Assembly: GCA_038205745.1 (NCBI GenBank)
Contig: JBBRBM010000006.1
Coordinates: forward strand, 1-63,258
Length of the DNA: 63,258 nucleotides
From: Verrucomicrobiota bacterium
Lineage (GTDB): Bacteria; Verrucomicrobiota; Verrucomicrobiia; Limisphaerales; SIBH01
Direction of reading: 5' to 3'
Within the stretch, counting starts at the first letter, position 1, and each line of letters starts with the position of its first letter. The notes below the pieces were generated by a model. That model made no database searches and was not told where the DNA came from. It saw nothing but the letters and a program-made list of their open reading frames with translations. Shown here piece by piece: positions 38,669 to 55,688 of this stretch. Position numbers and translations under genes: made by a program.

Positions 38669-39190
38669 ATGCAACCGACAAACTCCACCGTCGAGTTGGG
38701 CTACAACTCGAAAGTCGAAGGTGACGTCATTGTCACCCGTGCCGATGCTGCCTTGAACTGGTTTCGCCGTAACTCACTCTGGCCCATGCCCATGGGGCTC
38801 GCCTGCTGCGCCATCGAGTTGATGGCGGCGGGCGCGAGCCGGTTTGACATCGCGCGGTTCGGTGCGGAGGTCATGCGATTTTCTCCCCGGCAATCTGACC
38901 TCATGATCGTCGCTGGCACGGTCACTTACAAAATGGCGCTCGCGGTGAAGCGCATCTACGACCAGATGGCGGAGCCGAAGTGGGTCATCGCGATGGGCGC
39001 GTGTGCTTCCACCGGCGGCATGTATCGCAGTTACGCGGTGCTGCAAGGCGTGGACAACATCATCCCCGTGGACATTTACGTTGCGGGTTGCCCGCCGCGG
39101 CCCGAGGCGCTGCTCGATGCACTGATCAAGATGCAGGAAAAGGTCGGCAAGGAATCCGCCCTTGGCATCCGAAAGAAAGCCGCCGCTTAA
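38669..39190 (+). CDS. nuoB: NADH-quinone oxidoreductase subunit B
   Basis: [32 protein letters not shown]. Confidence 0.97.
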
Positions 39191-39204
39191 ATTGTAAATC
39201 TCCC

Positions 39205-39882
39205 GTGGCTGCCATCGATCTCGCAAAACAACTCAAGGACAAGTTCGGTGATCTGATCTCCGATCCGGCTGAGTTTCGTGACGAGGTGACGCTGAAAGTT
39301 GCCGATGCCGAGCGAATCGCAGAGGTCTGCGACTTCGCGAAAAAGTCCCTCGGGTTCAACATGCTGGTTGATCTGAGCAGCATTGATAATTACGGCGAGG
39401 ACCCGCGATGGACTTTGGTTTATGAGCTCTATCACATGGAGCAAAAGGCGCATCTCCGGCTGAAGACCGACGTCAGCGAAGAAAAGTCGGAGTTGCCGAC
39501 CATCGTGAATGTGTGGCGCACGGCCAATTGGCACGAGCGCGAGATTTACGACATGATGGGGATTCGATTCCGCGGTCATCCCGATCTGCGGCGCATCCTG
39601 ATGTGGGATGGCTATCCTTACTTCCCGTTGCGAAAGGATTTTCCTCTCGCGGGCAAGCCGACGGAACTTCCCGAAGTGGCCTTTACCAAACCCGCACCGC
39701 TCGAAGGCGGGCCGTTTGTGACGGTGCCGGGTGGCAAGGATTCACTGGCTCGCGAACCGCGCGTGCGCGTGCCGCTAACGGAATCGGTCGAAACCGTTTC
39801 GCGCCTGGAACGTCGTCTCGATGTAAAGCCGGCGCATGAACCGGACCAGCCGCAGCCGAATGCGGCGATGCCGAAATCGTAA
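39205..39882 (+). CDS. nuoC: NADH-quinone oxidoreductase subunit C
   Basis: ANWHEREIYDMMGI.F.GHPDLRRIL...PLRKDFP; GTG start inferred. Confidence 0.95.
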   Translation: MAAIDLAKQLKDKFGDLISDPAEFRDEVTLKVADAERIAEVCDFAKKSLGFNMLVDLSSIDNYGEDPRWTLVYELYHMEQKAHLRLKTDVSEEKSELPTIVNVWRTANWHEREIYDMMGIRFRGHPDLRRILMWDGYPYFPLRKDFPLAGKPTELPEVAFTKPAPLEGGPFVTVPGGKDSLAREPRVRVPLTESVETVSRLERRLDVKPAHEPDQPQPNAAMPKS

Positions 39883-41186
39883 TGGCCACGACTCAAGAAA
39901 TTACTTTTCGTGACGGGCCTTCGCGGATGGCCGCGGAGGACGCGAAGCAACACGCCGTTGGGCCGGGCGTGGCGCAGCAGCAATCGGAACTCGAAGGCGA
40001 ACAGATGGTGCTCAACATGGGGCCGTCGCATCCCGCCACGCACGGCGTCTTGCGCCTCGTGCTGGAGTTGGACGGCGAGATCATCACCAAGGCGATTCCC
40101 GACGTCGGCTACCTGCATCGCGGTGACGAGAAGATCGCGGAGAACATGACATACACCCAATTCATCCCTTACACGGATCGACTGGATTACCTCTCGCCGC
40201 TCGCGAACAACGTGGCTTACGCGCTTGCGGTCGAGAAGCTGATGGGCATCGACAAAGCGCTGCCGCCGCGTTGCCAATACATCCGCGTGATCTGCTGCGA
40301 GCTGGCTCGCATCTCGTCACATCTGCTGGGCGTAGGCTGCTTCGGGATGGACCTGGGAGCCCTGACCGTGTTCATGCACACGTTCACCGAGCGCGAAAAA
40401 ATTTATAACCTTGCCGAGTCGCTCACCGGCGCGCGCTTCACGACAAGTTACACGCGCATCGGCGGCGTTTCACGCGATACGCCGAATGGCTGGATCGCGG
40501 CGGTTGGAAAATTTTGTGATGAAGTGGTGACGAACTTCGATGAGTCCGAAACGTTGCTGACGCGCAATCGAATCTTCGTCGATCGCACGCGGGATGTCGG
40601 AATCATCTCGAAGGAGGACGCGATTGACTACGGGTTGACGGGGCCGAATCTGCGTGGCTCCGGCGTCGATTACGACGTGCGCAAGGCGAAGCCGTATCTC
40701 ATTTACGACCAGCTCGAGTTCGATGTCGCGCTCGGTTCGGTGGGCGATTGCTACGATCGTTACCTCGTGCGCATGGAAGAAATGCGGCAGAGCGTCCGCA
40801 TCATTCGCCAGTGTCTTAAAAACATTCCCGGCGGTGCGAACAACGAAGGCAACGAGCCTGTGCGTGTGAACGACGGCAAGGTCACGCTTCCGGCGAAGGA
40901 CAAAGTGATGAGCAGCATGGAAGAGCTGATTCATCACTTCATCAACGTGACGCAGGGCGTGAACGCCCCGGTCGGCGAAGTGTATTTCGGCGCGGAGAAT
41001 CCGAAGGGCGAATTGGGCTTCTACATCAATTCGCGCGGTGGCGGAACGCCGTATCGGATGAAGATCCGCGGGCCATCGTTTTGCAACTTGAGCATCCTGC
41101 CGCATCTCGTGCCCGGCAACATGCTGAGCGACGTGGTGAGCATTTTGGGCTCGCTCGATTTCGTGATGGGAGAGTGCGATCGATGA
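39882..41186 (+). CDS. nuoD: NADH-quinone oxidoreductase subunit D
   Basis: NMGPSHPATHGVLR, GYLHRG.EK, GDCYDRY, ENPKGELG, GECDR. Confidence 0.97.
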   Translation: MATTQEITFRDGPSRMAAEDAKQHAVGPGVAQQQSELEGEQMVLNMGPSHPATHGVLRLVLELDGEIITKAIPDVGYLHRGDEKIAENMTYTQFIPYTDRLDYLSPLANNVAYALAVEKLMGIDKALPPRCQYIRVICCELARISSHLLGVGCFGMDLGALTVFMHTFTEREKIYNLAESLTGARFTTSYTRIGGVSRDTPNGWIAAVGKFCDEVVTNFDESETLLTRNRIFVDRTRDVGIISKEDAIDYGLTGPNLRGSGVDYDVRKAKPYLIYDQLEFDVALGSVGDCYDRYLVRMEEMRQSVRIIRQCLKNIPGGANNEGNEPVRVNDGKVTLPAKDKVMSSMEELIHHFINVTQGVNAPVGEVYFGAENPKGELGFYINSRGGGTPYRMKIRGPSFCNLSILPHLVPGNMLSDVVSILGSLDFVMGECDR

Positions 41187-41722
41187 GCGCCGAGACTTAC
41201 GAACCCATTCCGAATTCGTTGCGGAGCGATCCAAAGTGGAGGGTCACGCCCGAGATCGAGGCCGAGGTCAACGAATTGCTCACGCATTACCCGGCGGACA
41301 AACAGCGCGCCGCATCGCTCATGGTGCTGCACGCGATTCAGGAGTTGCACGGCTGGATTCCGCAGGAAGCCGTGGAGTGGACGGCGAAGAAGCTCGGACT
41401 GTCGCCGATCAACATCTACGAGATCGTGACGTTTTATCCGATGCTCCGTCGCGAGCCGTTCGGGACGCATCATTTGAAAGTTTGCCGCACGTTGAGCTGC
41501 GCGCTCGGCGGCTCCGGTGAACTTCACAAACATTTCTGTCAGAAGCTGGGACTGGATTCCCACGCGCATGGGCCGCAGACGACGAAGGACGGCAAATACA
41601 CGGTCGAGTTTGTCGAATGCCTCGCGAGTTGCGGCACCGCTCCGGTGATGATGTGCAACGAGGATTTCTACGAGGGGGTCAGCAACGCGAAGGCGGATCA
41701 GCTTTTGGAGAAATACAAGTGA
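41183..41722 (+). CDS. nuoE: NADH-quinone oxidoreductase subunit E
   Basis: TFYPM, VCRTLSC, VECLASC 2Fe-2S ligands. Confidence 0.95.
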   Translation: MSAETYEPIPNSLRSDPKWRVTPEIEAEVNELLTHYPADKQRAASLMVLHAIQELHGWIPQEAVEWTAKKLGLSPINIYEIVTFYPMLRREPFGTHHLKVCRTLSCALGGSGELHKHFCQKLGLDSHAHGPQTTKDGKYTVEFVECLASCGTAPVMMCNEDFYEGVSNAKADQLLEKYK

Positions 41723-41745
41723 GGTCATGTCGACGAAGCGCAAAC

Positions 41746-41943
41746 ATGAAGACGACGCTGAAAGATTGGCCCAAGGTGCATCGAAAGCTCAAGGGCATGC
41801 CCGGCCTCGACGAGCACGAAACAATCCTGTTCGCAAGGTTCGCCGCGGCGACGCCGGACGAACGATGGCAGATGAACGTGAATTATCTCCGTTCGCTCGG
41901 CTTGTGGGGGCGCTCGACGGTGAAAACATCCGGTTCCAGGTGA
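41746..41943 (+). CDS. Small hypothetical protein (putative antitoxin partner of the NTase)
   Basis: 65 aa with a TPDERW motif; overlaps the downstream NTase gene, as is typical of TA-like pairs. Confidence 0.55.
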   Translation: MKTTLKDWPKVHRKLKGMPGLDEHETILFARFAAATPDERWQMNVNYLRSLGLWGRSTVKTSGSR

Positions 41944-42320: not shown

Positions 42321-42322
42321 AT

Positions 42323-42396
42323 TGGCTGCCCGACATGGATTTGAACCATGACAAACAGATTCAGAGTCTGTTGTGCTACCGTTACACCATCGGGCA
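42323..42396 (-). tRNA. tRNA-Gln (anticodon CTG), CCA encoded
   Basis: Minus strand TGCCCGA TGGTGTAACGGTAGCAC A ACAGA-CTCTGAA-TCTGT TTGT CATGG-TTCAAAT-CCATG TCGGGCA G CCA; all stems pair. Confidence 0.95.
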
Positions 42397-42412
42397 GTGG
42401 CGAAGCGGCGTG

Positions 42413-42440: not shown

Positions 42441-42450
42441 GAAACTGAAT

Positions 42451-43878
42451 ATGCCCGAGCAATACCGCCTCATCCTCAAGAACATCGACGCGCCGGGTTA
42501 CTCGATCGACATCGAGTGTTACCTGCGGCACGGCGGCTATGGGGCTTGGAAGAAGGCGCTGGCATTGCCCGCGAAGGAATTGCCGGATGGCAAGAAGCTC
42601 ACGGCGCAGGAACAACTGCGCGAGGATGTGAAGGCATCGGGGCTGCGCGGTCGTGGCGGCGCCGGGTTTTCGGCGGGGCTCAAGTGGAGCTTCGTGGACC
42701 GCAAAAGCGGCAAGCCGATTTACCTCATCTGCAACGCGGACGAATCAGAGCCGGGCACCTTCAAGGATCGCCAGATCATCCACAAAGATCCGCATCAGCT
42801 CATCGAGGGGATGATCATCTCGTGCTTCGCGAACGACGTGAAGCTCGCCTACATCTACATCCGCGGCGAGATGCCCGAGGGTGCGCGTATTTTGAATCGC
42901 GCGTTGAAGGAGGCGCGTGCGAAGGGTTTTCTCGGCAAGAATATTCTCGGCAGCGGCTACGATTTGGAGATTCACGTTCATCGTGGCGCAGGCGCTTACA
43001 TCTGCGGCGAGGAGACGGGCTTGATCGAATCGCTTGAAGGCAAGCGGCCCTATCCGCGCATCAAGCCACCTTACTTTCCCGCGATCCTCGGCCTCTGGAT
43101 GTGCCCGACGATCGTCAACAACGTCGAAACGCTCTGCAACGTGAAGCACATCGTCGAGATGGGCACGGCGAATTTCGCGAAGCTCGGCACGCCGAACAAC
43201 ACCGGCACGCGCATCGTGAGCCTCAGCGGCCAGGTGAAGAAGCCGGGCTATTACGAAATCGAAGTCGGCAAGGTCACCATCGGCGAGTTGATTTTTCACG
43301 AGAACTTCGGCGGCGGCTTGCGTGATGGTCGAAAACTCAAGGCAGTAATTCCCGGCGGTTCATCGGCGAAAGTTTTCAAGGCCGGCGAAAAGTTTAAGAT
43401 CAAGAAGAAGAACCCGGACGGCACGATGGCGGAAGTCGAGACGGACATGCTCGATCTGCCCTATGACTTCGACACGCTCATCGCCGCCGGCTCCATGTCC
43501 GGTTCCAGCGCCATTATTGTGATGGATGACTCCGTGGATATCGTCGAAGCGCTCGCGAATCTCAGTGAGTTTTACGCGCACGAGAGTTGCGGCCAATGCA
43601 CACCTTGCCGCGAAGGTTCGCTGTGGATGAGCAAGGCGCTTCATCGCCTCACGCATGGTGAAGGCCGGAAGAGCGACGCGGATTACCTGCTCGGCATCGC
43701 GAACAACATTCCCGGCGGCCGCACCATTTGCGCCTTCGGCGAAGCCTGCTCGTGGCCCGTGCAGAGTTTCGTCGGGAAATTCAAGGACGAGTTCATCGCG
43801 AAGGGTGCGGAAGCCGAAGCGCGCCGCGGCGGTGCTGGTCCGATGTACGACATCAAAATCGCTGCGAGCCCAGAATGA
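42451..43878 (+). CDS. nuoF: NADH-quinone oxidoreductase subunit F
   Basis: GLRGRGGAGF, NADESEPGTFKDR, GAGAYICGEET, ESCGQCTPCREG. Confidence 0.97.
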   Translation: MPEQYRLILKNIDAPGYSIDIECYLRHGGYGAWKKALALPAKELPDGKKLTAQEQLREDVKASGLRGRGGAGFSAGLKWSFVDRKSGKPIYLICNADESEPGTFKDRQIIHKDPHQLIEGMIISCFANDVKLAYIYIRGEMPEGARILNRALKEARAKGFLGKNILGSGYDLEIHVHRGAGAYICGEETGLIESLEGKRPYPRIKPPYFPAILGLWMCPTIVNNVETLCNVKHIVEMGTANFAKLGTPNNTGTRIVSLSGQVKKPGYYEIEVGKVTIGELIFHENFGGGLRDGRKLKAVIPGGSSAKVFKAGEKFKIKKKNPDGTMAEVETDMLDLPYDFDTLIAAGSMSGSSAIIVMDDSVDIVEALANLSEFYAHESCGQCTPCREGSLWMSKALHRLTHGEGRKSDADYLLGIANNIPGGRTICAFGEACSWPVQSFVGKFKDEFIAKGAEAEARRGGAGPMYDIKIAASPE

Positions 43879-43888
43879 GAGAGGAACG

Positions 43889-44194
43889 ATGCCCAAGCTT
43901 TACGAATACTTCGGCATCGTCGTTTACTTTTACACGAATGAACACGAACCGATTCACGTTCACGGCCGCCACGCCGGGTGCGAGAGCAAAGCGGAAATCA
44001 TCCGCGAGAATGGCCGCGTCGTGGGCATCGTGTTTCGTGACATTCCCGGAAAACGGCCGCTCGAAGGAGCCAAGCTTCGGAATTTTCAAGAGCTGGTTGA
44101 AGCAAAGGCCGAGGAAATCGTGGAGCGATGGATTAACTTCTTCGTGCATAACATTCGCAGCAAACCCGAGATCATTACGCGGAGGGTGAAATGA
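43889..44194 (+). CDS. DUF4160 domain protein (putative TA component)
   Basis: MPKLYEYFGIVVYFYTNEHEPIHVH signature. Confidence 0.85.
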   Translation: MPKLYEYFGIVVYFYTNEHEPIHVHGRHAGCESKAEIIRENGRVVGIVFRDIPGKRPLEGAKLRNFQELVEAKAEEIVERWINFFVHNIRSKPEIITRRVK

Positions 44195-44448
44195 AAACGA
44201 CGACGCAGTACCTGGAGATTACGAACGCCGAATATGTTTCTGGATACAAGATCCGGCTCACGTTCAACGACGGCAAAGTTCACGTCATGGATTTCGGCCC
44301 GTTGCTGAAGAAGGCCCGCAATCCTGACACGACTGATTATCGCGACCTCAAAAAGTTCAAGACGTTCCGCATCGTGGATGGCGACCTGATGTGGGGAGAT
44401 TACCAAATGATTTTCCCTATCATGGATTTGTATCGCGGAGAAATCTGA
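44191..44448 (+). CDS. DUF2442 domain protein (putative TA component)
   Basis: Y..GYKIRLTFNDG...DF...F...G.L.W; ATGA overlap with the DUF4160 gene. Confidence 0.85.
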   Translation: MKTTTQYLEITNAEYVSGYKIRLTFNDGKVHVMDFGPLLKKARNPDTTDYRDLKKFKTFRIVDGDLMWGDYQMIFPIMDLYRGEI

Positions 44449-46139
44449 TGTCCACCGCCGCAACAACCGAGCAAAAGTCTGCCACGTCGCCGGTCGAGAC
44501 CATCGCCGTAAAAGTCGATGGCAAGGCCGTGCAGGTGCCGAAGACGACGCCAGACCCGGTCACTGGCAGGCCGATTCCCACCACGATGATCCAGGCCACG
44601 AATCTGGCGAAGGTGGACGTGCCGCATTACTGCTATCATCCCAAGCTGCCGGTTTCGGGCAATTGCCGCATGTGCCTCGTCGAGTTTGGCACACCAGCGA
44701 TGGGGCCGGATCGCAAGCCCATTCTCAACGAGGACGGCACGCCGAAGATCGCGAAGTCGCCGCGGCCCGTCATCGCGTGCGCCACACCGATTTCGCCGGG
44801 AATGGAGATTTACACCACCACGCCTGCGGTGAAGCAGATGCGTGAAGGCGTGCTCGAATCGTTGCTCATCAATCATCCGCTCGACTGCCCGATTTGCGAT
44901 CAGGCCGGCGAGTGCAAGCTCCAGGAATACTCGGTCGATTACGGCCAGTCGCAGAGCCGCTTCGTGGAGCACAAGGTTCACAAGCCCAAGCGCATTGATC
45001 TTGGCCCGCGCATCGTGCTTGATGCCGAACGCTGCATCCTTTGCACGCGCTGCATTCGCTTCACAAAGGATGTCGCGGGCGATGACGCGCTCGGCATCGT
45101 GAACCGCGGCAGTTACAACACGATCTCGGCGTTCCCTGGCAAACCGTTCGACAACAATTACACGCTCAACACCGTGGACATCTGTCCCGTGGGCGCGCTT
45201 ACGTCGAAAGATTTTCGCTTCAAGATGCGCGTGTGGTTCCTCAAGGAAACCAGGAGCCTCTGCACGAGTTGCGGCACGGGCTGCAACATCGTCATTGGTT
45301 CGCGCGAAGAAAAAATCCATCGCTACGAACCGCGTGAGAACGACGCGGTCAACTCGACTTGGATGTGCGATTACGGTCGGCTCAACTACAAGTGGATCGG
45401 CAGCGAGAAGCGGCTGACGAAGGTTGGAGGTTCCAGGCTGAAGGTTGCTGCTTGGAATACTGCGCTCGCCGAAATCTCGGAAGTGTTGCGCAAAGCAGCG
45501 GTTGGTTCCGTTGCCATCGTCGCGTCGGCTCGGCAGACGAATGAAGAGTTGTTCCTGCTGAAGAAACTAGCGACGAAGTTCGATGCGCTCACTGATTCCG
45601 TCCCGCGCATCGCGGAAAGCGACAAGCTGCTGCTCGACGAGGATCGCAATCCGAACACGACCGGTTCGCGACTGATTGGAATATCCTTCACCGAAACCGG
45701 CATCAACCTGCCGAAGATCGCCGACGGCATCCGCGCCGGGAAGATCACGACGTTGATCGTCTTCGGCGAAGATGTAACGAAGCACGGCATCGGCGCCGAC
45801 CTGCTGGCGAAACTCGACACGCTGATCGTCAGCGACATTTTGCCGAACAAGACGACGGAGGTTGCGCACTACTTGTTGCCCGGCTGCGCGCACGCCGAGA
45901 AGCGCGGCTCGTTCACCAACATCAAAGGCCGCGTGCAGCGATTCCTGAAAGCCGTTGAGCCGCGCGGCGATGCACGACCTGAGTGGGAGTTTCTCCACGA
46001 GTTGGTTCATAACGTGACCGGCCAGAATGGCTTTGTGAGCATTGAAGGGTTGTTTAACCAGATGGCGAAGGAAGTGCCCGCGTTCAACGGCGTGACTTGG
46101 GCCGCGCTCGGCGATAACGGCGTGACGGTGGAAATCTGA
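44448..46139 (+). CDS. nuoG: NADH-quinone oxidoreductase subunit G (short form)
   Basis: PHYCYHP, GNCRMCLVE, NHPLDCPICDQAGEC.LQ, RCILCTRCIRF, ICPVGAL; TGATG overlap with DUF2442. Confidence 0.95.
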   Translation: MSTAATTEQKSATSPVETIAVKVDGKAVQVPKTTPDPVTGRPIPTTMIQATNLAKVDVPHYCYHPKLPVSGNCRMCLVEFGTPAMGPDRKPILNEDGTPKIAKSPRPVIACATPISPGMEIYTTTPAVKQMREGVLESLLINHPLDCPICDQAGECKLQEYSVDYGQSQSRFVEHKVHKPKRIDLGPRIVLDAERCILCTRCIRFTKDVAGDDALGIVNRGSYNTISAFPGKPFDNNYTLNTVDICPVGALTSKDFRFKMRVWFLKETRSLCTSCGTGCNIVIGSREEKIHRYEPRENDAVNSTWMCDYGRLNYKWIGSEKRLTKVGGSRLKVAAWNTALAEISEVLRKAAVGSVAIVASARQTNEELFLLKKLATKFDALTDSVPRIAESDKLLLDEDRNPNTTGSRLIGISFTETGINLPKIADGIRAGKITTLIVFGEDVTKHGIGADLLAKLDTLIVSDILPNKTTEVAHYLLPGCAHAEKRGSFTNIKGRVQRFLKAVEPRGDARPEWEFLHELVHNVTGQNGFVSIEGLFNQMAKEVPAFNGVTWAALGDNGVTVEI

Positions 46140-46143
46140 CGCA

Positions 46144-47313
46144 ATGGACTGGAACTTCATAATTTTCAGCGCGGTGAAGATCGTCGGCGTCATCACCGTG
46201 GTGATGACCTTCGTTGCTTATTCCGTTCTCGTGGAGCGCAAGGTGTCCGCGTGGATTCAGGATCGCGTGGGACCGAATCGAACCGCGCCTCCGCTGTTGG
46301 CCAAGATTCCTGTCATCGGGCCGTTTTTGATTAGCCTCGGTATTTTCCAGCCGATCGCCGACGGCTTGAAGCTGTTCATGAAGGAAGATTTTACGCCATC
46401 GCACGTGCGCAAAAGTTACTTCTGGATCGCGCCCGCAGTTGCGATGGCGCCGTCGTTGATGACCATCGCAGTGATTCCGTTCGGCTCATGGATGGGCTTG
46501 CAGAAGATGGTGATCGCGGATTTGAACGTCGGCGTGCTCTACACCTTCGGCATCGTGTCGCTGGCGGTTTACGGCCTGGTGCTCGCGGGATATGCAGCGA
46601 ACTCGAAGTATCCGTTTCTCGGCAGCATTCGTTCCAGCGCGCAGATGATTTCCTACGAGATTTCAATGGGCATGTCGGTGATCCCGATCTTCCTCGTCGC
46701 GGCTTCGCTCAATGTCGAAGGGCTTTCGAGTGCGTGGCAGGAACTCTTGAAGGGCACCAGTTCGCTGAACCTCAGCCGCATCGTGGCGTATCAGGCGGAG
46801 CACGGCTGGTTCGCGCTGCCGTTCATGGCGAAGACGCAGACGGCGCTCAGTTACTTTGTGTGGCCGCTGACGTTTATTGCGTTCATCATCTTCCTCGTGT
46901 CCGCGTTTGCTGAAACCAATCGCCTGCCGTTCGACCTGCCGGAATCGGAGACGGAGCTTGTCGGCGGTTATCACACGGAATACAGCTCGATGAAGTTCGG
47001 CCTTTTCTTTCTCGGCGAATACGCGGCGATGATCGCGGCGAACTCGTTGATCGTGACACTGTTCCTCGGCGGCTGGACGCTGCCGTTCGCCGGGCTGGAC
47101 CAACCCGCGACAAGTGTCGCCATCGGCATCGCCCAAATCGCGATCTTCATCGGCAAGATGCTGGCGATGATGGTGGTGATGATCTGGGTGCGCTGGATGT
47201 TGCCGCGCTTTCGCTACGACCAACTCATGGATCTGGGCTGGCGCCGATTCATCCCGGTGGCGCTCGCGAATATTTTGCTCGTGGCCTGCGTGCTATGGGC
47301 GACGACGAAATGA
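46144..47313 (+). CDS. nuoH: NADH-quinone oxidoreductase subunit H
   Basis: ERK...QDR.GPNR, QPIADGLKLF.KE, AQMISYE, ETNRLPFDLPE.E.ELV, PRFRYDQLM. Confidence 0.97.
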   Translation: MDWNFIIFSAVKIVGVITVVMTFVAYSVLVERKVSAWIQDRVGPNRTAPPLLAKIPVIGPFLISLGIFQPIADGLKLFMKEDFTPSHVRKSYFWIAPAVAMAPSLMTIAVIPFGSWMGLQKMVIADLNVGVLYTFGIVSLAVYGLVLAGYAANSKYPFLGSIRSSAQMISYEISMGMSVIPIFLVAASLNVEGLSSAWQELLKGTSSLNLSRIVAYQAEHGWFALPFMAKTQTALSYFVWPLTFIAFIIFLVSAFAETNRLPFDLPESETELVGGYHTEYSSMKFGLFFLGEYAAMIAANSLIVTLFLGGWTLPFAGLDQPATSVAIGIAQIAIFIGKMLAMMVVMIWVRWMLPRFRYDQLMDLGWRRFIPVALANILLVACVLWATTK

Positions 47314-47351
47314 AATCCCGGCAGAACATCGTCACGCCGAAGGCGAGCCTT

Positions 47352-47964
47352 TCATTAGCACCCGGCTGAAGCCGGGTGACACGGCGGGCATGTGATGTTT
47401 CAGCCGCTTCAGCGGCTTTTCGGATCGGTTTGAATGTGGCGGTGAAGAAATGACGTATGCCGCTCCACTCCTACTGCCGCTGCTGGCTGCACCTCACGTG
47501 GGCCACGTTGGAACGTCGTCCCTTACTCGCGCCACCCGCTGCGGCAAAACTTTCGGGATACCTTCACGAATACGCGAAGCACAAGGGCATCTACCTGCGC
47601 ATCAATTATGTGAATGTGGATCACGTTCACGCGTTGATCGACTTACCTGTATCGAGACCCATCGAGGAAGTTCTTCAGTTGCTCAAGGGTGCCTCGTCCC
47701 ATTGGGTGAACGAGAGCAATCTCGTTCCCGCCAAGTTTGGGTGGCAACGCGGGTATGGAGCGTTCTCGGTTTCGCATTCGGGTGTGGAGGAAGTGAGCGC
47801 TTACATCGCAGCCCAAGAAGAGCATCATCGGAAGCGAACGTTCGCCGAGGAAATGAAACTTCTGGTCGAGAAATACGGCTTGCAGTGGCACGAGGAGGAA
47901 AACCGTTGAAACGGTTTTCCTCGATGCGCGACGATTACACCCGGCTAAAGCCGGGTGCTAATGA
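47352..47964. mobile_element. REP-flanked Y1 transposase element (RAYT / IS200-like)
   Basis: Outer inverted hairpins TCATTAGCACCCGGCTGAAGCCGGGTG / CACCCGGCTAAAGCCGGGTGCTAATGA and inner hairpins AGCCGCTTCAGCGGCT / AAAACCGTTGAAACGGTTTT flank the transposase. Confidence 0.85.
47457..47909 (+). CDS. tnpA: IS200/IS605-family (REP-associated-type) tyrosine transposase
   Basis: HUH motif DHVHAL; LKGASS, WQRGYGAFSVS, YI..Q..HH. Confidence 0.9.
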   Translation: MPLHSYCRCWLHLTWATLERRPLLAPPAAAKLSGYLHEYAKHKGIYLRINYVNVDHVHALIDLPVSRPIEEVLQLLKGASSHWVNESNLVPAKFGWQRGYGAFSVSHSGVEEVSAYIAAQEEHHRKRTFAEEMKLLVEKYGLQWHEEENR

Positions 47965-48027
47965 GAGAACGGAAGGGGGGGCGAGTTTGCCACCGTGCCA
48001 TTCTGTTTTCCGAGCACGCAAAGCGAA

Positions 48028-48600
<573 letters not shown>

Positions 48601-48621
48601 CGCGACGATGAACTAACGCAC

Positions 48622-49122
48622 ATGCAGGATATTCTCTTCTACATTCTCGCAGCGCTCGCTCTCGGCTTCGGTTTCCTGACCGTGGCAAATCCGTTCAGCC
48701 GCAATCCCGTCACGAGCGCGATGTTCCTTGTCCTCACGATGGGTGCGCTGGCTGGACTGTTTGTCCTGCTCCACGCGTTCTTTATCGCGGCGGTGCAGAT
48801 CCTCGTTTACGCCGGGGCGGTGATGGTGCTGTTCCTGTTTGTGATCATGTTGCTCAACTTGAAAGATGAAGAGCGACGCAAGTTCAACGCCTTCGGAATT
48901 GGTGCGGGCTTCATCGCGGTCGGTGCGATCGCGGCGTTATTGGTGAAGACAATTTGGTTTTCTGGCATTGGCGAAAACAAAACGCCTTCGCTTGAAGGTT
49001 CCACCGTCACGCTGGGTCGCGAATTGTTCACCAAATACCTGCTGCCGTTTGAACTCATCTCCGTGCTGCTGCTCGTTGCCATGGTCGGCGTGATTCTGCT
49101 GAGCAAGAAGGATCTGAAATGA
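48622..49122 (+). CDS. nuoJ: NADH-quinone oxidoreductase subunit J
   Basis: [29 protein letters not shown]. Confidence 0.96.
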
Positions 49123-49427
49123 TGCACGTCGGCCTCGAACACTATCTTGTCGTCAGCGCTGCGCTTTTTTGCCTCGGCATCCTCGGCGTCGTCATGCGCC
49201 GCAATCTGCTGGTGATGTATATGGGCCTCGAACTGATGCTCAACGCGGCGAACCTCACGCTCGTCGCCTTCTCGCGATTCAACAATCACCTGAACGGCCA
49301 GATCATGGTCTTCTTCATCATCACCGTGGCGGCGGCGGAAGTGGCTGTCGGCCTCGCGCTGATCGTGGCCCTGTATCGCAAGCGCCAGACCGCGCACGTG
49401 GAAGATCTGACCTCGATGAAACTTTGA
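49119..49427 (+). CDS. nuoK: NADH-quinone oxidoreductase subunit K
   Basis: [23 protein letters not shown]. Confidence 0.96.
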
Positions 49428-49438
49428 TGAAGAACCAA

Positions 49439-49636
49439 CTACCAGACGATGTTTGCGTCCTTCGAAATCCGGGTGGCAAGGCCCGGTTTCAAGGTCTGGT
49501 TTCCGTGAATGGGCACTGTGATGATTTTGATCTCGCCTGCCTTGCCGAAGATATGATGGCTTCCGCGGATGCGTTTCAATATCCAGCCATGTTCGTGAAG
49601 CAACCGGCACATTTCCTTGCCGGTGATGGGCTTCAT
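49439..49636 (-). CDS. hicA: HicA family toxin (mRNA interferase)
   Basis: GW...RIRGSHHIF...ITVPIHG...LKPG. Confidence 0.9.
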   Translation of the reverse strand: MKPITGKEMCRLLHEHGWILKRIRGSHHIFGKAGEIKIITVPIHGNQTLKPGLATRISKDANIVW

Positions 49637-49839
49637 ATGGCGAGTTCCGCTACTTCGATTTCTGGCTGTGGCTGGCGGCCTTCTTCGCGCAACACTTCGA
49701 GGTGACCCAATGCCGCTTCACGCAGATTTTCCATCAACTCGGCGGCGGTTTCGCCCTGAGAATAACAACCAGGCAGCGACGGCACCTCACCCCAATAGCC
49801 GCCATCTGGCTCCGGATGGACAACGACTTTGAACGTCAT
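49633..49839 (-). CDS. hicB: HicB family antitoxin (short, no DNA-binding domain)
   Basis: GGYWGEVPSLPGCYSQGET..E...N.REA. Confidence 0.9.
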   Translation of the reverse strand: MTFKVVVHPEPDGGYWGEVPSLPGCYSQGETAAELMENLREAALGHLEVLREEGRQPQPEIEVAELAI

Positions 49840-49959
49840 GATGACAAAATGCGCGGGACGTTCGACTAAAGCAAGCTGGCGAAACTGCTCTGAGGCAGAG
49901 CACGATCACCCGCAGGTGCAGGCAGAGCACGTGGAAGATCTGACCTCGATGAAACTTTG

Positions 49960-51897
49960 ATGAACTTCAGCTACCCGGAAGATTTGGCGTGGGTCGTTTT
50001 GTTGCTGCCTCTGGTGGCGACTTTGATCATCACGCTGTTCACGCAGCGCTGGAAATTTCTCAGCGCGCAAATCTCCATCATCGCCATCGTCGGTTCGTTC
50101 GTGGCGAGCGCCGTGCTCGTCGCGCAATTCATGCTCATGCAGGCCAGGGGCATGGACGCGACGCCGTTCGAATGGCTCGCCGCTGGCGTGCCCGGCTTCG
50201 ATGAACTGAAAGTCAACATCGGCATGCACATCGATCAACTCAGCCTGCTGATGCTGTTGATCGTGACCGGCGTCGGCGGCGCAATTCACATTTACTCCTA
50301 CGGTTACATGCGCGACGACCCGGGATTCTCACGTTTTTTCGCGTGCCTGAGCCTGTTCACGTTCTCGATGCTCGGCATCGTCCTCTCGAACAACTTCGTG
50401 ATGACGTTCATCTTCTGGGAACTGGTCGGCGTCTCCAGCTATCTGCTCATCGGCTTCTGGTACGAACGCGGTTCGGCGGGCGACGCGGCGAAGAAAGCAT
50501 TCATCACCAATCGCCTGGGCGATTTCGGATTCTTGATCGGCATCATCATGATCTGGGCGATCACCGGACAAACGGACTTCGACGCGCTGCAATCCAAATT
50601 CACAAAGAACCCAGAAGTGCTCGGCGCGTGGGTGAATGTCGCCGGCCTGCTGATCTTCTGCGGCGCGATGGGCAAGTCCGCGCAATTTCCGCTCCACGTC
50701 TGGCTGCCGGACGCGATGGAAGGCCCGACGCCCGTCTCCGCGCTCATCCACGCCGCGACGATGGTGGCCGCCGGCGTTTACATGCTCTGCCGCGTGTTCT
50801 TCATCTTCAGCGCGAACGCCGTGTGGCCCGAGGCGCTTTCGTTCATGAACGGCTGGACGGCGCTTGATGTGATCGCGTGGATTGGCGGATTCACCGCATT
50901 GCTCGCCGCGCTGATCGCGGTGCAGCAAAACGACATCAAACGCATCCTCGCATACTCCACGCTCTCGCAACTCGGCTACATGGTGATGTCGGTCGGCCTC
51001 GCGGGACCGACGCCCGCGATGTTCCACCTCGCCACGCACGCATTCTTCAAGGCGCTGCTGTTCCTTGGCGCCGGCTCTGTGATCCACGCGATGCATCACG
51101 AGCAGGATATTTGGGCGATGGGCGACTTGCGCAAGAAGTTGCCCACGACCTGGTGGACATTCCTCGTCGGCACGCTCGCGCTGGCGGGCATCTGGCCGCT
51201 CGCAGGCTTTTACTCGAAGGACTCCATTCTCGCCCTGGCGGCGGAGCACAAACCCATCTTGTTTGTCCTCGCGGTGTTCGTGGCGTTCCTCACGGCGTTC
51301 TACATGTTCCGCCTTCTATTCGTTGTCTTCTTCGGGCCAGCGAAGAGCGATCACGTCCATCACGCGCACGAATCTCCCGGCGTGATGATCTGGCCGCTCC
51401 GTGTGCTCGCTTTGTTCTCGGTGATCGGCGGAGTCATCGGCATCGATGTGTTTGTTGGCCAAATGTTCACCAAGGGCGAAGCGCATCACGGGGAATGGTT
51501 CGACGCAGTTCTCCAGCCCTTTGGCCACAACGCGCTCGCCGCTTTGTTCGGCCTGCTCGCCGCGATCGTGGGCATCAGCCTCGCCGCCGCTTGCTATTGG
51601 AACGCGACGAACGATCCATTGCCGGCGCGTCTCGGCTGGCTCTCCCGCGCGATGCGCAACCGTTTCTACTTCGATGAACTTTACGCGGCGATGATCGCCG
51701 TCACCCACGAAGCGCTCTCGAAACTCGCTGACTGGTTCGATCGCTGGATCATCGCGGGATTGGGCGTTCGCGGCACGCATGGCACCACGGAAATTTTTGG
51801 CCGCGCGCTGCGCCTGGTGCAGACCGGGAATCTTCAAACCTACGCCTTCTTCTTCGCCCTCGGCGTGGCGGTGGTGTTATTTTTTGTTTTGAGATGA
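49960..51897 (+). CDS. nuoL: NADH-quinone oxidoreductase subunit L
   Basis: WELVG..SYLLIGFW, GKSAQFPLHVWLPDAMEGPTPVSALIHAATMV, HAFFKALLFL. Confidence 0.97.
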   Translation: MNFSYPEDLAWVVLLLPLVATLIITLFTQRWKFLSAQISIIAIVGSFVASAVLVAQFMLMQARGMDATPFEWLAAGVPGFDELKVNIGMHIDQLSLLMLLIVTGVGGAIHIYSYGYMRDDPGFSRFFACLSLFTFSMLGIVLSNNFVMTFIFWELVGVSSYLLIGFWYERGSAGDAAKKAFITNRLGDFGFLIGIIMIWAITGQTDFDALQSKFTKNPEVLGAWVNVAGLLIFCGAMGKSAQFPLHVWLPDAMEGPTPVSALIHAATMVAAGVYMLCRVFFIFSANAVWPEALSFMNGWTALDVIAWIGGFTALLAALIAVQQNDIKRILAYSTLSQLGYMVMSVGLAGPTPAMFHLATHAFFKALLFLGAGSVIHAMHHEQDIWAMGDLRKKLPTTWWTFLVGTLALAGIWPLAGFYSKDSILALAAEHKPILFVLAVFVAFLTAFYMFRLLFVVFFGPAKSDHVHHAHESPGVMIWPLRVLALFSVIGGVIGIDVFVGQMFTKGEAHHGEWFDAVLQPFGHNALAALFGLLAAIVGISLAAACYWNATNDPLPARLGWLSRAMRNRFYFDELYAAMIAVTHEALSKLADWFDRWIIAGLGVRGTHGTTEIFGRALRLVQTGNLQTYAFFFALGVAVVLFFVLR

Positions 51898-52223
51898 ACG
51901 CGACCATTGACGATCTGAAGACGATTCTGCCCGATGTGCGCGCAGCATTGGTGCGTTGCCTGGGGACCGATTTCGTCCGCGCGTATCTCTACGGCTCGTG
52001 CGCACGCGGCGAGCAGACGCCGGATTCGGACATCGACGTGCTCGTGATCGTGCGTGACGAATCCGAACGCGTGCGGTTGACCGAACGTACGTCCGAGGCG
52101 ATCGCCGGGCTTTGCCTTAAACACGGCACGCTCATCTCTCGCGCGTTCATGTCGGAGGAACGCTTCAAGAAAGGGATCAGCCCTTTCCTGATCAATGTCC
52201 GGCGGGAGGCGGTGCCGCTGTGA
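51894..52223 (+). CDS. Minimal nucleotidyltransferase (MNT/MntA-type antitoxin)
   Basis: LYGSCARG...DSDIDVLV; ATGA overlap with the nuoL stop. Confidence 0.9.
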   Translation: MNATIDDLKTILPDVRAALVRCLGTDFVRAYLYGSCARGEQTPDSDIDVLVIVRDESERVRLTERTSEAIAGLCLKHGTLISRAFMSEERFKKGISPFLINVRREAVPL

Positions 52224-52600
52224 AACCGGAACTGCAAGCCCTCATGGACAAGGCTGACCAAAGCTTGTCCGCCGCCGAGTTGCTGTTGAAGGAAGGCTAC
52301 GGCGACTTCGCCGCGTCACGCGCCTATTACGCAATGTTCTACGCGGCAGAAGCGTTACTGCTGGAGCGCGGGCAGGCGTATTCCTCGCACAAAGCGGTCA
52401 TCAGCGCGTTCGGCGTGGAGTTTGCCCGTACGGCGCAAATGGACCCGGCGCTGCATCGGGCGCTCATCGAGGCGCAAACGCTGCGGCAGACCGGCGATTA
52501 CGAAACCGGAACACCAATCACAGAAGCAGAGGCCAGGCAAACCATCGCTGCGGCGCGCAGTTTTCTACTGGCCGCCACGCAAAGGCTTACCGCCACTTAA
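52220..52600 (+). CDS. HEPN domain protein (UPF0332-like)
   Basis: SRAYYAMFY, SSHKAVISAFG, R..GDY. Confidence 0.88.
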   Translation: MKPELQALMDKADQSLSAAELLLKEGYGDFAASRAYYAMFYAAEALLLERGQAYSSHKAVISAFGVEFARTAQMDPALHRALIEAQTLRQTGDYETGTPITEAEARQTIAAARSFLLAATQRLTAT

Positions 52601-52603
52601 ACG

Positions 52604-54133
52604 ATGTCATTGCTCACCTACATCATCATGGTGCCGTTCATCGGAGCGCTGATCGTGGCGCTGATTCCGCGCGATTACCGCTTCGTCATCCGCATCGTGG
52701 CGCTGGCGAGCAGCTTGATTTCAATGGTGCTGGCGATTGCGCTCTTCACGAAGTTCGACGCGAGCGCGACGGGCTTTCAATTCGTGCAGAAGGTGCCGTG
52801 GGTAAAATCACTCGATCTCAATTTCCACGTCGGCGTGGACGGCATCAACGTCGGCTTGATCCTCATGGGCGCCATCGTCGCGTTCGCGGCCACGTTCGTG
52901 TCGAACAAGATCGAGACGCTGGTCAAAGAATTCTATCTGCTGCTGCTCGTGATGATCGGCGGCATTCTTGGTGCATTCGCGTCGCTGGATTTGTTCTTCC
53001 TCTACTTCTTCCACGAACTCGCGCTGGTGCCCACGTTCATCATGATCGGCGTGTGGGGACGCGGAGAGCAGAAGAACTACGCGACGTTCCAGATCACGCT
53101 CTATCTCAGCATCGGCGCATTGTTCGCGCTCGTCGGATTGATCGCGCTTTACCTGAACAGCGCGGTGGGTGGCTTGCCCGCCACTTTCGACATCGTTGAG
53201 ATGACGCGGCGATTCAAAGCCGTGCCGCTGGTGCTGGGCGCGCAGAAGCTGATCTTCCCGCTGCTGCTGTTCGGCTTCGGCATTCTCGTTTCGCTTTGGC
53301 CGTTCCACACATGGGCGCCGCTTGGTTATGGCTCCGCGCCCGCGCCGACGGCGATGCTTCACGCGGGTGTGTTGAAAAAATTCGGCCTCTACGGCTTGAT
53401 CCGCATCGCGATTCCGTTCGCGCCGGACGTTGCAAGAGCGCATCTGCACCTCATCGCGTGGCTGGCGCTCGGGAACATTCTCTACTGCGGTTGGGTGGCG
53501 ATGCGGCAAAAGGATTTCAATTTCCTGCTCGGCAATTCCAGCGTGGCGCACATGGGCTTTTGCTTCCTCGGCATCGCGAGCCTGAGCCTGGTCGGCATCA
53601 CGGGAACGGTGCTCGTGATGATCGCACACGGATTTCTCGCGGCGTTGAGTTTTGGCTTGAGCGGTTACTTGAACGAACAAACCGGAACGCTCGAAATCAG
53701 CAAGCTCGGCGGCCTGATGAAGAAGATGCCGTTCATCGGCGTGGCGCTTGTGATCGCAGCGATGGCGGGTTGCGGCCTGCCGGGCTTCGCCAACTTCGCT
53801 GGCGAATTGCTGACGCTCTTCGGCGCGTGGAAAACGTTGTCCCCGTGGGTCGTCGTCGCCGCATGGGGCGCGCTGGTGGTCGGTGCGATCTACATGTTGC
53901 GTGCGGTGCGAAACATTCTTCACGGCCCGCTCGCGGAGAATCTGCCGACGGTTCGCGACGCCAGCACATGGCGCAGGATTCCATTCCTGCTGCTGATCGC
54001 GTGCTTGCTGCTCTTCGGTGTCATGCCGCGACTGCTCACGAGCAAGATCGATCCCGCCGCACGGGAGATCGTCGCCATGGTGAAAGGCGAGTTGCCAAAA
54101 CCCGCGCCGCTGAAGCGCGCCGCCAGGAAGTGA
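52604..54133 (+). CDS. nuoM: NADH-quinone oxidoreductase subunit M
   Basis: GVDGI, PFHTWAP, LKKFG.YG, SSVAHMG, PGFANFAGE. Confidence 0.95.
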   Translation: MSLLTYIIMVPFIGALIVALIPRDYRFVIRIVALASSLISMVLAIALFTKFDASATGFQFVQKVPWVKSLDLNFHVGVDGINVGLILMGAIVAFAATFVSNKIETLVKEFYLLLLVMIGGILGAFASLDLFFLYFFHELALVPTFIMIGVWGRGEQKNYATFQITLYLSIGALFALVGLIALYLNSAVGGLPATFDIVEMTRRFKAVPLVLGAQKLIFPLLLFGFGILVSLWPFHTWAPLGYGSAPAPTAMLHAGVLKKFGLYGLIRIAIPFAPDVARAHLHLIAWLALGNILYCGWVAMRQKDFNFLLGNSSVAHMGFCFLGIASLSLVGITGTVLVMIAHGFLAALSFGLSGYLNEQTGTLEISKLGGLMKKMPFIGVALVIAAMAGCGLPGFANFAGELLTLFGAWKTLSPWVVVAAWGALVVGAIYMLRAVRNILHGPLAENLPTVRDASTWRRIPFLLLIACLLLFGVMPRLLTSKIDPAAREIVAMVKGELPKPAPLKRAARK

Positions 54134-54140
54134 TTTCTCG

Positions 54141-55688
54141 ATGAACCTTTCTTTGATGAGTCTCGAAGTCGCCGTGGTCCTGCTCGGGCTTGGCGTGTTG
54201 CTGCTCGATCTGTGGATGCCGGCAGAGCACAAGCGCAAGCTGGGCTACGCCGCCGCGCTCGGGGTGCTCGCGATTTTCGCCTGCTCGTTCTGTCAACAGT
54301 TCGCGCTCGTCGGCGAACCGCAAATCACTGCGGCCGGCAGCTACGTTCTCGACCCACTCGCACTGTTCTTCAAGCGCTTCTTCCTCGTGGCGGCGTTCTT
54401 CGTTCTGGTCATGGCAACGGAGTTCGCGGATCGCATCGAGGCGGGCATCTCCGAGTATTATTCGCTGATCCTCTTCGCGCTCGCGGGGATGATGTTCGCC
54501 TCGTCGGCCAACGATTTCACGCTGCTCTTCGTTTCGCTCGAAACCATCACGGTGACGTTTTACGTGCTCACGAGTTTTCAGCGCGGTCGCGTGCAATCGC
54601 TGGAAGCCGGCGTGAAGTATCTCGTCATCGGCGGGCTATCGACTGGCTTCACGGTCATGGGCATTGCGCTCGTTTCTGGCACGGCGACGACAACGATCGC
54701 CGGGCACGCGTTGAACGGAATGAACTTCGGGGATCTCGCGCAGTTCGTGAAATATTACAGCCCGGACCATCAAGGTGGATTTCCGCCGCTCTTCCTCGCG
54801 GGACTCGCGCTCGTGCTGGCCGGACTGGGATTTAAGATCGCGGCGGTTCCATTTCAAATCTGGGCGCCGGATGTTTATCAGGGTTCACCCACGCCCACGA
54901 CGGCGTTTCTCGCGATCGGTTCCAAGGCTGCCGGATTCGTGCTGTTGCTTCGACTACTCTTCACCGCAGTGCCCGACGTGACATTTCACTGGGAGAAAAT
55001 CCTGATGGCGATGTCGGCCGTGACGATTCTCTACGGTAATCTCTGTGCGATTCCGCAACGCAGCGTGAAGCGCCTGCTCGGCTATTCCTCCATCGCGCAC
55101 GCCGGCTATTTGCTGCTCGGCGTCGCTGCGGCGAGCGGCAGCGGTTCCTCGGCGATTCTGTACTACTTGAGCGGCTACCTCTTCACCGTGATCACCGCAT
55201 TCATCGTGATCACCATCGCGCTACGACACACCGAAACGGACGACATCAGTGGCCTCTCCGGTCTGCATCGCCGGTCGCCGATACTGGCGTGGGCCATGAC
55301 GTTCGCGATGGTTTCGCTCGCAGGCATTCCGCCGCTCGCCGGGTTCTTCGGGAAATTCCTGTTGCTCAAAGCGGTGATCGAAGAAGGCGCACGCTACACT
55401 GCGTTTTACTGTCTCGCCGGCATTGCGATCATCGGCGTGGTGATTTCGCTCTACTACTACTTCGGCGTGGTGCGGGCGATTTTCTGGTCACGCGACAACA
55501 GCGATGTGTCGTCGATCCGTGTTCCTTTTCTCTCTCGCGCCGCTTTGGTCGTGTGCATGGCGGCAATTCTGTTCCTCGGAATTTATCCGCAGCCGTTGCT
55601 GAACGTTGTGGATCGGGCGGTGCAACCTCTTGTTGCGGGGATGATTGGTACCAGTCACGCCGGGCCGAGCACGGCGGCGCTGCGCTGA
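54141..55688 (+). CDS. nuoN: NADH-quinone oxidoreductase subunit N
   Basis: EAGVKY, FKIAAVPFQIWAPDVYQG, KRLLGYSSIAH, SLAGIPPLAGFFGK. Confidence 0.96.
   Translation: MNLSLMSLEVAVVLLGLGVLLLDLWMPAEHKRKLGYAAALGVLAIFACSFCQQFALVGEPQITAAGSYVLDPLALFFKRFFLVAAFFVLVMATEFADRIEAGISEYYSLILFALAGMMFASSANDFTLLFVSLETITVTFYVLTSFQRGRVQSLEAGVKYLVIGGLSTGFTVMGIALVSGTATTTIAGHALNGMNFGDLAQFVKYYSPDHQGGFPPLFLAGLALVLAGLGFKIAAVPFQIWAPDVYQGSPTPTTAFLAIGSKAAGFVLLLRLLFTAVPDVTFHWEKILMAMSAVTILYGNLCAIPQRSVKRLLGYSSIAHAGYLLLGVAAASGSGSSAILYYLSGYLFTVITAFIVITIALRHTETDDISGLSGLHRRSPILAWAMTFAMVSLAGIPPLAGFFGKFLLLKAVIEEGARYTAFYCLAGIAIIGVVISLYYYFGVVRAIFWSRDNSDVSSIRVPFLSRAALVVCMAAILFLGIYPQPLLNVVDRAVQPLVAGMIGTSHAGPSTAALR

Follow-up and report, generated by a model that had tools for sequence, protein, structure and literature searches.

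Accessory genes at the junctions of an intact nuo cluster

Toxin-antitoxin (TA) systems are commonly regarded as self-contained pairs of genes, each pair forming an autonomous operon within an island, plasmid, or prophage. In the Verrucomicrobiota bacterium described here, genes of this type lie between the genes of respiratory complex I. The stretch analyzed (the window, 63,258 nucleotides (nt)) is the whole of contig C6 (JBBRBM010000006.1) of a 6.2-Mb, 359-contig draft genome (GCA_038205745.1) from a soil/freshwater, Pedosphaera-like Verrucomicrobium. Its nuo cluster (nuoB to nuoN, 38669-55688, plus strand) contains all 13 genes in canonical order with none interrupted, and five of the 12 junctions between them, i.e., nuoE-nuoF, nuoF-nuoG, nuoH-nuoI, nuoK-nuoL, and nuoL-nuoM, carry extra genes (Table 1). 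An earlier note on this DNA had described the five insertions and the integrity of every nuo open reading frame (ORF). The ORF listings and Pfam support both, with the coordinates correct: NuoB through NuoL match their families over nearly the full length, and nuoM and nuoN align at full length to relatives by tblastn. The close couplings that it pointed out are likewise present in the sequence, i.e., the DUF2442 gene overlaps nuoG in TGATG, nuoL overlaps the MNT gene in ATGA, and the TAA stop of the HEPN gene is followed by 3 nt and the ATG of nuoM. Its count of four TA families was only partly right: three recognized families are present (DUF4160/DUF2442, HicAB, and MNT-HEPN), but the fourth is an uncharacterized gene pair between nuoE and nuoF. 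We consider it probable, though well short of certain, that the intact nuo locus is the most heavily loaded case of an order-wide habit in which selfish cassettes of TA, nuclease, or defence-candidate genes occupy the junctions of core operons.

The same junctions hold different cassettes in related genomes

The nuo clusters of 20 genomes from the same genus and order were compared, with their genes mapped by tblastn. One locus (L004), whose nuo genes align in fragments, was left out of the counts, which leaves 19 loci; a junction was counted as occupied when ≥200 bp of extra DNA remained between the extrapolated ends of its genes. By this measure, 41 of 182 nuo junctions are occupied, among them nuoF-nuoG in 7/18, nuoE-nuoF in 8/15 (beyond the tRNA gene described below), and nuoM-nuoN in 5/15. 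The load per locus extends from 8/12 junctions in L003 to none in L014 and L019 (0/12 each) and L012 (0/8). Twenty genomes from other orders of the class have 17 of 214 nuo junctions occupied.

Forty insert ORFs of the relatives were picked by hand and compared with Pfam, and 24 of them had a match at E ≤0.01. The nuoF-nuoG junction alone holds at least five kinds of cassette: a Uma2 nuclease, Unstab_antitox with ParE, ParE with Phd, DUF2442 alone, DUF4160/DUF2442, and an unassigned 290-amino acid (aa) protein; whatever the content, the cassettes here are placed precisely between the stop codon of nuoF and the ATG of nuoG. At nuoM-nuoN, three members of the genus have Phd with PIN and an SLBB protein is found elsewhere; nuoJ-nuoK holds a PDDEXK_3 nuclease; nuoH-nuoI holds a Y1 transposase gene in two species and DUF4160 with DUF2442 in another family; nuoI-nuoJ holds HicB with HicA in one genome; nuoD-nuoE holds a small ORF with a weakly AbiEii/DUF6036-like nucleotidyltransferase (NTase) in three genomes; and nuoL-nuoM holds a YhcG nuclease or a HerA-like ATPase. 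The comparison of synteny across relatives, which the earlier note had proposed as a check, thus finds different cassettes at the same junctions in different species, and on this ground the nuo junctions behave as hot spots.

Two of these inserts have features of their own. In L009, a 2.5-kb stack of four or five cassettes fills nuoF-nuoG (4525-6980 in the oriented locus; ParE with Phd, Unstab_antitox with ParE, DUF2442, and a 295-aa protein), with a second, 62-nt copy of the nuoF 3′ end lying among them. At nuoJ-nuoK in L002 and L003, the PDDEXK_3 cassette (GxxExxY-type) is bounded, as read by eye, by imperfect inverted repeats of ∼28 nt, which may mark a small mobile unit. Several junction gaps of the relatives also contain translated repeat motifs such as "PLPWGEG".

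One could suppose that metagenome mis-assembly or faulty binning had stitched the cassettes into the nuo cluster. The genome is, after all, a draft in many contigs, and contigs assembled from public runs break at the REP-like arms of nuoH-nuoI and at the 46-nt repeat of nuoK-nuoL, both described below. However, contigs from a run of a different study bridge nuoD-nuoE-small ORF-NTase-like gene (39724-42137), nuoF-DUF4160-DUF2442-nuoG (43030-44892), and nuoL-MNT (51405-52000), and independently assembled metagenome-assembled genomes (MAGs) have the same cassettes at the same junctions. The chimeric assembly that the earlier note named as a possible undoing of its observation is thereby largely refuted, and we regard it as exceedingly improbable.

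Cassettes in other operons of the genome

The observation would also lose its force, as the earlier note recognized, if cassettes were equally dense elsewhere. This is not so. Five toxin families gave 70 matches in the genome (HicA 18, DUF4160 8, HEPN 1, PIN 24, and ParE 19), of which three lie in the 12 junctions of the nuo cluster of the window, where 0.17 would be expected, and two in the 11 junctions of a second nuo cluster. Over the ∼5084 junctions of the gene map, the Poisson P is 7e-4 for the nuo cluster of the window and 2e-5 for both nuo clusters; against co-directional tight junctions only, the corresponding values are 8e-3 and 1e-3. Among the relatives, the ribosomal S10-spc-alpha operon has a single occupied junction in 309. 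Gaps of ∼200 bp at rplR-rpsE and rpsM-rpsK were considered and rejected as alignment-end effects caused by low-complexity N-termini, since they vanish with extrapolated gene ends. The atp operon of the relatives has 10/121 junctions occupied, eight of them at atpA-atpG (8/20), where a conserved insert of ∼630 bp resides; in the present genome this site holds an ORF6N-domain gene (PADLOC candidate PDC-S05; contig C24, 21770-22345) that ends 2 nt before atpG.

The second complex I-type cluster is on contig C64 and is without nuoE, nuoF, and nuoG, the gene order and all gene names except nuoA and nuoH having been read by eye. It carries a ParE pair at its C-D junction, a two-gene insert at K-L, and, ahead of its final two antiporter genes, a PIN pair; its counterparts in the relatives have 21/160 junctions occupied. 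The nuoA gene lies outside the nuoB-nuoN cluster: the only PF00507 matches in the genome are on contigs C132 and C64, and the flanks retrieved for 20 related loci contained none. Because this second cluster exists, the complex I of the window is not demonstrably essential.

The same tight packing recurs across the genome. The 47 evaluable toxin matches include 18 rows (17 blocks) with co-directional neighbors at ≤60 nt on both sides, and in 17 of those 18 rows the toxin gene is co-oriented with its neighbors; the genome background in the same tight setting is 964 of 4729 genes (20%), and 20% for small genes too. Pfam analysis of the neighbors of ten toxin blocks identified gyrB-gyrA, pheS-pheT, a UbiX-type flavoprotein with UbiA, PSCyt-DUF1553 with DUF1501, DUF58 with BatA, FixP with FixG (ccoP-ccoG, antisense), LeuA-like with ValS, PurA with UppS, and two more pairs. 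The insert at gyrB-gyrA is a two-gene PIN-type module in this genome (contig C252) and measures 830 to 900 bp in 5/8 loci of relatives, where by eye it is antitoxin-plus-PIN-like (L131, L132, L134, L135, and L138). At pheS-pheT, a five-gene block with two PIN genes (contig C26) corresponds to inserts of 1.8 to 3.1 kb and differing content in 3/7 loci of relatives (L122, L123, and L126; by eye HicAB-like, PIN-like, and NTase-like). As a separate observation on this operon, the alignment of PheS from relatives G009, G005, G015, G012, G034, G037, G038, and G016 falls into two segments that share a single open frame, suggesting that several relatives carry an in-frame insertion, some tens of residues long, near PheS residue 162-166.

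The habit is genome-wide and not tied to respiration, because the same kinds of cassette are found in gyrBA, pheST, ubiX-like-ubiA, cco, DUF58-batA, atp, and the second nuo cluster, with gyrBA and pheST loaded in relatives as well. Both forms of selection proposed in the earlier note, i.e., TA modules kept for co-expression with respiration and TA modules stabilizing an essential operon, are weakened by this evidence and are not supported as stated, given the same kinds of cassette in many unrelated operons and the existence of a second complex I.

Composition of the five insertions

The pair between nuoF and nuoG has the organization of a DhiTA system. Both domains are above the Pfam cut-off, the toxin gene comes first, and the DUF2442 gene overlaps that of DUF4160 in ATGA (44191-44194). 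The original report describes the validated DhiTA of Dickeya dadantii as a DUF4160/DUF2442 pair, also with the toxin gene first and with a 3-nt overlap (PMC8198452). Against the NCBIfam DhiA model, the DUF2442 protein scores 22.9 bits, below the cut-off of 200, and matches only profile positions 3-62 of 160. This cassette is far more diverged between relatives than its flanks (58-61% aa identity vs. 85-89%).

At nuoL-nuoM, a minimal NTase is followed by a HEPN protein with a 4-nt overlap, i.e., the arrangement of MNT-HEPN systems. The MNT protein scores 33.4 bits against the NCBIfam MntA model (cut-off 60, not reached) and has a counterpart in L002 with 84% aa identity. The HEPN protein is the only PF05168 match in the genome, and a string R50-x6-H57 was read by eye in its translation when the Rx4-6H motif was sought.

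The nuoH-nuoI insert has the layout of a REP-associated tyrosine transposase (RAYT; REP, repetitive extragenic palindrome), i.e., a Y1 gene between inverted hairpins with copies dispersed in the genome. Both 30-nt REP-like arms hold a GC-rich hairpin; a unit of ∼70 nt around the right arm recurs on 12 other contigs, 13 hairpins of the exact type are found genome-wide, and within the nuo region of the window the unit occurs at nuoH-nuoI only. The protein reaches neither NCBIfam cut-off, with 53.8 against 55 for IS200 and 22.9 against 80 for REP_Tyr_transpos. A Y1 gene with 86-87% aa identity is found at this junction in L001 and L003 too and is more diverged than its flanks; the shared site in three species at this identity indicates that the gene is not hopping. 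A second, more abundant family of GC-rich hairpins (CCCCCGGC-ATCTT-GCCGGGT type) is dispersed through the genome in dozens of copies.

The insert between nuoK and nuoL consists of a HicA_toxin gene adjoining a HicB-like antitoxin gene with a 4-nt overlap, as in HicAB systems. The earlier note had listed it as one more cassette; both genes are on the minus strand and thus antisense to nuo. HicB matches only the N-terminal half of the profile, so that a DNA-binding part is not seen. The nuoK-nuoL junction is free of inserts in all 15 related loci. The hicBA insert is bracketed by a direct repeat of 46 nt (93% identical, 38 nt perfect, spacing 533), and because the repeat comprises the nuoK 3′ end and the beginning of nuoL, the TGATG context at the nuoL start is preserved. 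Copy 1 still has the start codon that nuoL used originally, which now opens a junk frame of ∼93 codons (49427-49705) that runs antisense through hicA into hicB.

Between nuoE and nuoF, a small ORF and an NTase-like gene precede a tRNA-Gln gene. Neither of the two proteins has a match in Pfam, NCBIfam, or PADLOC. A motif hG-S...D-V-D is common to seven aligned homologues of the NTase-like protein, with the first Asp kept in six of the seven; the window's copy has Gly instead (residue 43, 41991-41993) where the six homologues have the first Asp of D-x-D, and this copy may be catalytically dead. The homologue profile finds a putative nucleotidyltransferase, TM1012, in the PDB (weak, E 0.034); look-alikes in the Atlas include clusters with DUF2204, DUF6036, or AbiEii (leads only); the similarity to the nuoD-nuoE NTase of L011 is merely suggestive (BLASTP E 0.11); and an AlphaFold2 model from a seven-row alignment is poor (predicted local distance difference test, 43.7). 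NTase identity is plausible, not established, and to call the pair a TA system is a guess. The tRNA gene, which the earlier note had counted as part of this cassette, is instead an order-wide antisense resident: the same gene in the same junction and orientation was found in 15/15 related loci scanned, and the gene is therefore ancestral to the order. The nuoE-nuoF gap of 20 genomes from other orders is too short for a tRNA. The fixed, head-on position of a tRNA gene within a complex I cluster is peculiar on its own account.

This junction is where another explanation has its best candidates, namely that some or all inserts have been domesticated and now have a role in complex I or in its regulation, e.g., as factors for assembly or stress switching that tune respiration. 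The small ORF and NTase-like pair is between nuoE and nuoF in 6/6 loci retrieved via the NTase-like protein, with a divergence resembling that of nuoE, and is present also in L002, L006, and L013; the fixed tRNA gene, the conservation of the atpA-atpG ORF6N gene and of the gyrB-gyrA PIN pair across several genomes, and the ORFs of the Rhodobacter capsulatus nuo operon discussed below point the same way. Set against these are the contents, which mostly differ between species at the same junction, the compact operons of many relatives such as L014, L019, and L012, the Gly for the first motif Asp in the window's NTase-like copy, and the families themselves, which are generic TA or nuclease families found in unrelated operons too. 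We consider domestication decidedly unlikely, and we continue with selfish cassettes at core-operon junctions as the preferred reading.

Table 1. Positions of the nuo genes and of the inserted features in the window
Feature	Coordinates	Strand	Remarks
nuoB	38669..39190	+	Pfam Oxidored_q6, E 3.6e-29
nuoC	39187..39882	+	Pfam Complex1_30kDa; start TTG 39187 or 39205 (gene map chose 39205)
nuoD	39882..41186	+	Pfam Complex1_49kDa, E 8e-116
nuoE	41183..41722	+	Pfam 2Fe-2S_thioredx, E 1e-44
Small ORF, 65 aa, partner of NTase-like gene	41746..41943	+	No family match
NTase-like protein, 151 aa	41865..42320	+	Start 41865 or 41904; GMS...(D/G)VD motif, weak evidence
tRNA-Gln(CTG)	42323..42396	-	ARAGORN; antisense to nuo
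nuoF	42451..43878	+	Pfam Complex1_51K, NADH_4Fe-4S
DUF4160, DhiT-type toxin candidate	43889..44194	+	Pfam PF13711, E 6.7e-10
DUF2442, DhiA-type antitoxin candidate	44191..44448	+	Pfam PF10387
nuoG	44448..46139	+	Pfam Fer4_Nqo3, Molybdopterin, NADH-G_4Fe-4S_3
nuoH	46144..47313	+	Pfam NADHdh, E 8e-109
Left REP-like arm	47349..47378		Hairpin CACCCGGC-TGAA-GCCGGGTG; 30-nt inverted repeat, 90% complementary
Y1 (IS200/RAYT-like) tyrosine transposase	47457..47909	+	Pfam Y1_Tnp, E 2.4e-20
Right REP-like arm	47938..47967		Inverted copy of left arm
nuoI	48028..48600	+	Pfam Fer4 families
nuoJ	48622..49122	+	Pfam Oxidored_q3
nuoK	49119..49427	+	Pfam Oxidored_q2
Direct repeat, copy 1	49386..49431	+	True nuoK 3′ end and first bases of nuoL
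hicA, toxin candidate	49439..49636	-	Pfam HicA_toxin, E 1.5e-17, 63.8 bits
hicB, 68 aa	49633..49839	-	Pfam HicB_lk_antitox, 40.2 bits, profile positions 1-61/123
Direct repeat, copy 2	49919..49964	+	Duplicated nuoK end; TGATG context before nuoL restored
nuoL	49960..51897	+	Pfam Proton_antipo_M, Proton_antipo_N; ATG 49960, ORF opens at TTG 49957
MNT-type minimal nucleotidyltransferase	51894..52223	+	Pfam NTP_transf_2, E 5.7e-11, 43.1 bits; PADLOC PDC-S09, E 6e-29
HEPN protein	52220..52600	+	Pfam HEPN, E 5.5e-18, 65.7 bits
nuoM	52604..54133	+	Full-length tblastn matches in relatives
nuoN	54141..55688	+	Full-length tblastn matches in relatives

Age of the cassettes and possible routes of entry

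Cassettes shared between relatives are about as diverged as their flanks, which points to old residents and not to actively hopping elements: the small ORF and NTase-like pair has 84-87% nucleotide identity against 84-88% in the flanks, and MNT-HEPN 80-83% against 75-78%. In general, judged from the sequences, the cassettes look like old residents with lineage-specific losses and gains and not like recent transfers. The GC content of most of them is 0.49-0.57, compared with 0.58-0.61 for nuo, MNT-HEPN being the exception, and a search for DNA paralogues of the five inserts elsewhere in the genome found only the REP-like unit. Duplicated gene ends lie in or beside inserts at eight junctions, i.e., the hicBA junction of the window and seven in the two nuo clusters of relatives, the latter being gene-end or gene-start fragments of 42 to 105 nt.

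These features may be combined in one scheme. The cassettes would be selfish or defence modules that mostly lack their own promoters and are read through from the host operon, and those of the nuo cluster probably ride on host transcription. They would enter by a recombination that duplicates the junction, either when a circular cassette that itself carries a junction copy integrates by a single crossover or through template switching, such that the start context of the downstream gene is preserved; the freshest scar of such an entry would be the 46-nt repeat that surrounds hicBA. Once in place, cassettes would be hard to lose, both through toxin addiction and since imprecise deletion would hit a core gene; they would persist for long and be trimmed to overlapping stop and start codons. 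Conserved flanks would allow the same junction to be hit or exchanged repeatedly, giving rise to hot spots such as nuoF-nuoG.

Several points weigh against this reading or limit how far it reaches. The related genomes are kin, and the junction counts are descriptive, not independent trials. Mostly co-oriented ORFs were picked for Pfam, and for this reason antisense cassettes may be under-counted. The gene map is crude, with 22 of the 70 toxin matches lying where no gene was called, and the comparison of 36% with 20% for the tight setting has no baseline from other phyla. The divergence of the DhiTA-type cassette fits fast evolution or replacement equally well. Raised flank identity beside the shared cassettes, sought as a sign of recent homologous transfer, was not seen; recent homologous exchange is thus not evidenced. 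A scan with consensus promoters and terminators found two promoter-like sites, whereas 5.0 were expected from shuffles, and 21 terminator-like sites against 20.4. Being antisense, hicBA and tRNA-Gln cannot be read-through passengers, and with these two antisense residents the nuo cluster may not be a single operon.

A junction-targeting route, which the earlier note had offered as its first explanation, is half sustained: synteny does support junction hot spots, but a dedicated enzyme is hypothetical, no integrase is seen, and the shared cassettes look old. In its strict form, this explanation would be a dedicated site-specific insertion at stop/start junctions, by integron-like recombination, by the Y1 transposase, or by nuclease homing. 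The exact placement of the nuoF-nuoG cassettes, the recurring junction duplications, the inverted repeats that end the PDDEXK_3 cassette, and the Y1 transposase with REP-like hairpins resident in the operon are consistent with it, as are the several single-gene cassettes that are PD-(D/E)XK nucleases (Uma2, PDDEXK_3, and YhcG). However, inspection of the region revealed no integrase-like ORF, and only 0 to 11 nt remain in the tight junctions, which is no attC-sized room, although no attC model was run. The lack of paralogous DNA copies, the apparent age of the shared cassettes, the stationary Y1 gene, and the finding of the REP-like unit at no junction other than nuoH-nuoI within the nuo region of the window tell against it further, and we find dedicated insertion decidedly unlikely.

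A bolder variant of the preferred reading deserves mention, although we think it unlikely: stop/start junctions could be docking sites for promoter-less TA and PD-(D/E)XK cassettes that spread by a homing-like route. The flanking core genes would then serve as homology arms, a nuclease or toxin would penalize the empty allele, and insertion would duplicate the junction and leave the downstream gene translatable.

Relation to known systems and biological meaning

In the nqo cluster of Paracoccus denitrificans, unidentified reading frames occur among the structural genes. Among nuo operons that contain additional ORFs, the closest precedent is that of R. capsulatus, which is described as having ORFs intermixed with the nuo genes (PMC4758237); one of them, urf7, is treated as a methyltransferase in another report (PMC9036352). 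The R. capsulatus locus and the present one are alike in that structural genes of a 14-subunit-type complex I cluster are separated by unrelated ORFs. They differ in that the inserts here are TA-type, nuclease-type, and transposase genes, which vary by species at each junction, and in that the habit reaches gyrBA, pheST, atp, and other operons.

Chromosomal integration hot spots flanked by core genes are described between transcription units and usually comprise kilobases with integrases, and TA modules are frequent passengers and stabilizers in chromosomal integron arrays. The present locus shares with core-gene hot spots the variable accessory content between conserved genes; unlike them, the sites here are inside operons, at single stop/start junctions, with no integrase seen and no attC-sized spacers. 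In T4-like phages, homing endonuclease genes stand free between conserved, co-transcribed genes, and their nuclease-driven "intronless homing" is proven. Similarly, small, putatively selfish genes lie here exactly between conserved genes and differ in presence among close relatives; in contrast, this is a bacterial chromosome, the cassettes are mostly TA pairs, and any homing would be hypothetical. The nuoH-nuoI unit resembles RAYT in its single Y1 gene between inverted REP-like hairpins and in the dispersal of related units, but its protein scores nearer the IS200 model and the unit sits in an operon junction. The TA-type pairs match the type II/VII families DhiTA, HicAB, and MNT-HEPN (the last being type VII) in their domain pairs, gene adjacency, and short overlaps. 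Canonical TA loci are described as autonomous, autoregulated operons, and their own promoters were measured in the DhiTA report (PMC8198452); unlike them, the pairs here abut or overlap the flanking core genes. A literature search, with subscription journals outside its scope, found no paper that describes TA cassettes within the nuo operon or within other core operons in this lineage.

Should the cassettes indeed be transcribed along with the host operon, their dose would be coupled to how strongly genes of respiration, replication, and translation are expressed, and the neighboring core genes would constrain cassette loss. This provides a testable setting for the persistence of chromosomal TA systems, for the stabilization of a region, and for the tolerance of operons to insertion. 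Annotators of this phylum should be aware that its "operons" may be interrupted by antisense tRNA and TA genes. Should the homing-like route prove true, the free-standing homing genes of T4-like phages would have a parallel on a bacterial chromosome, and TA systems would be acting, in a novel manner, as gene drives inside essential operons.

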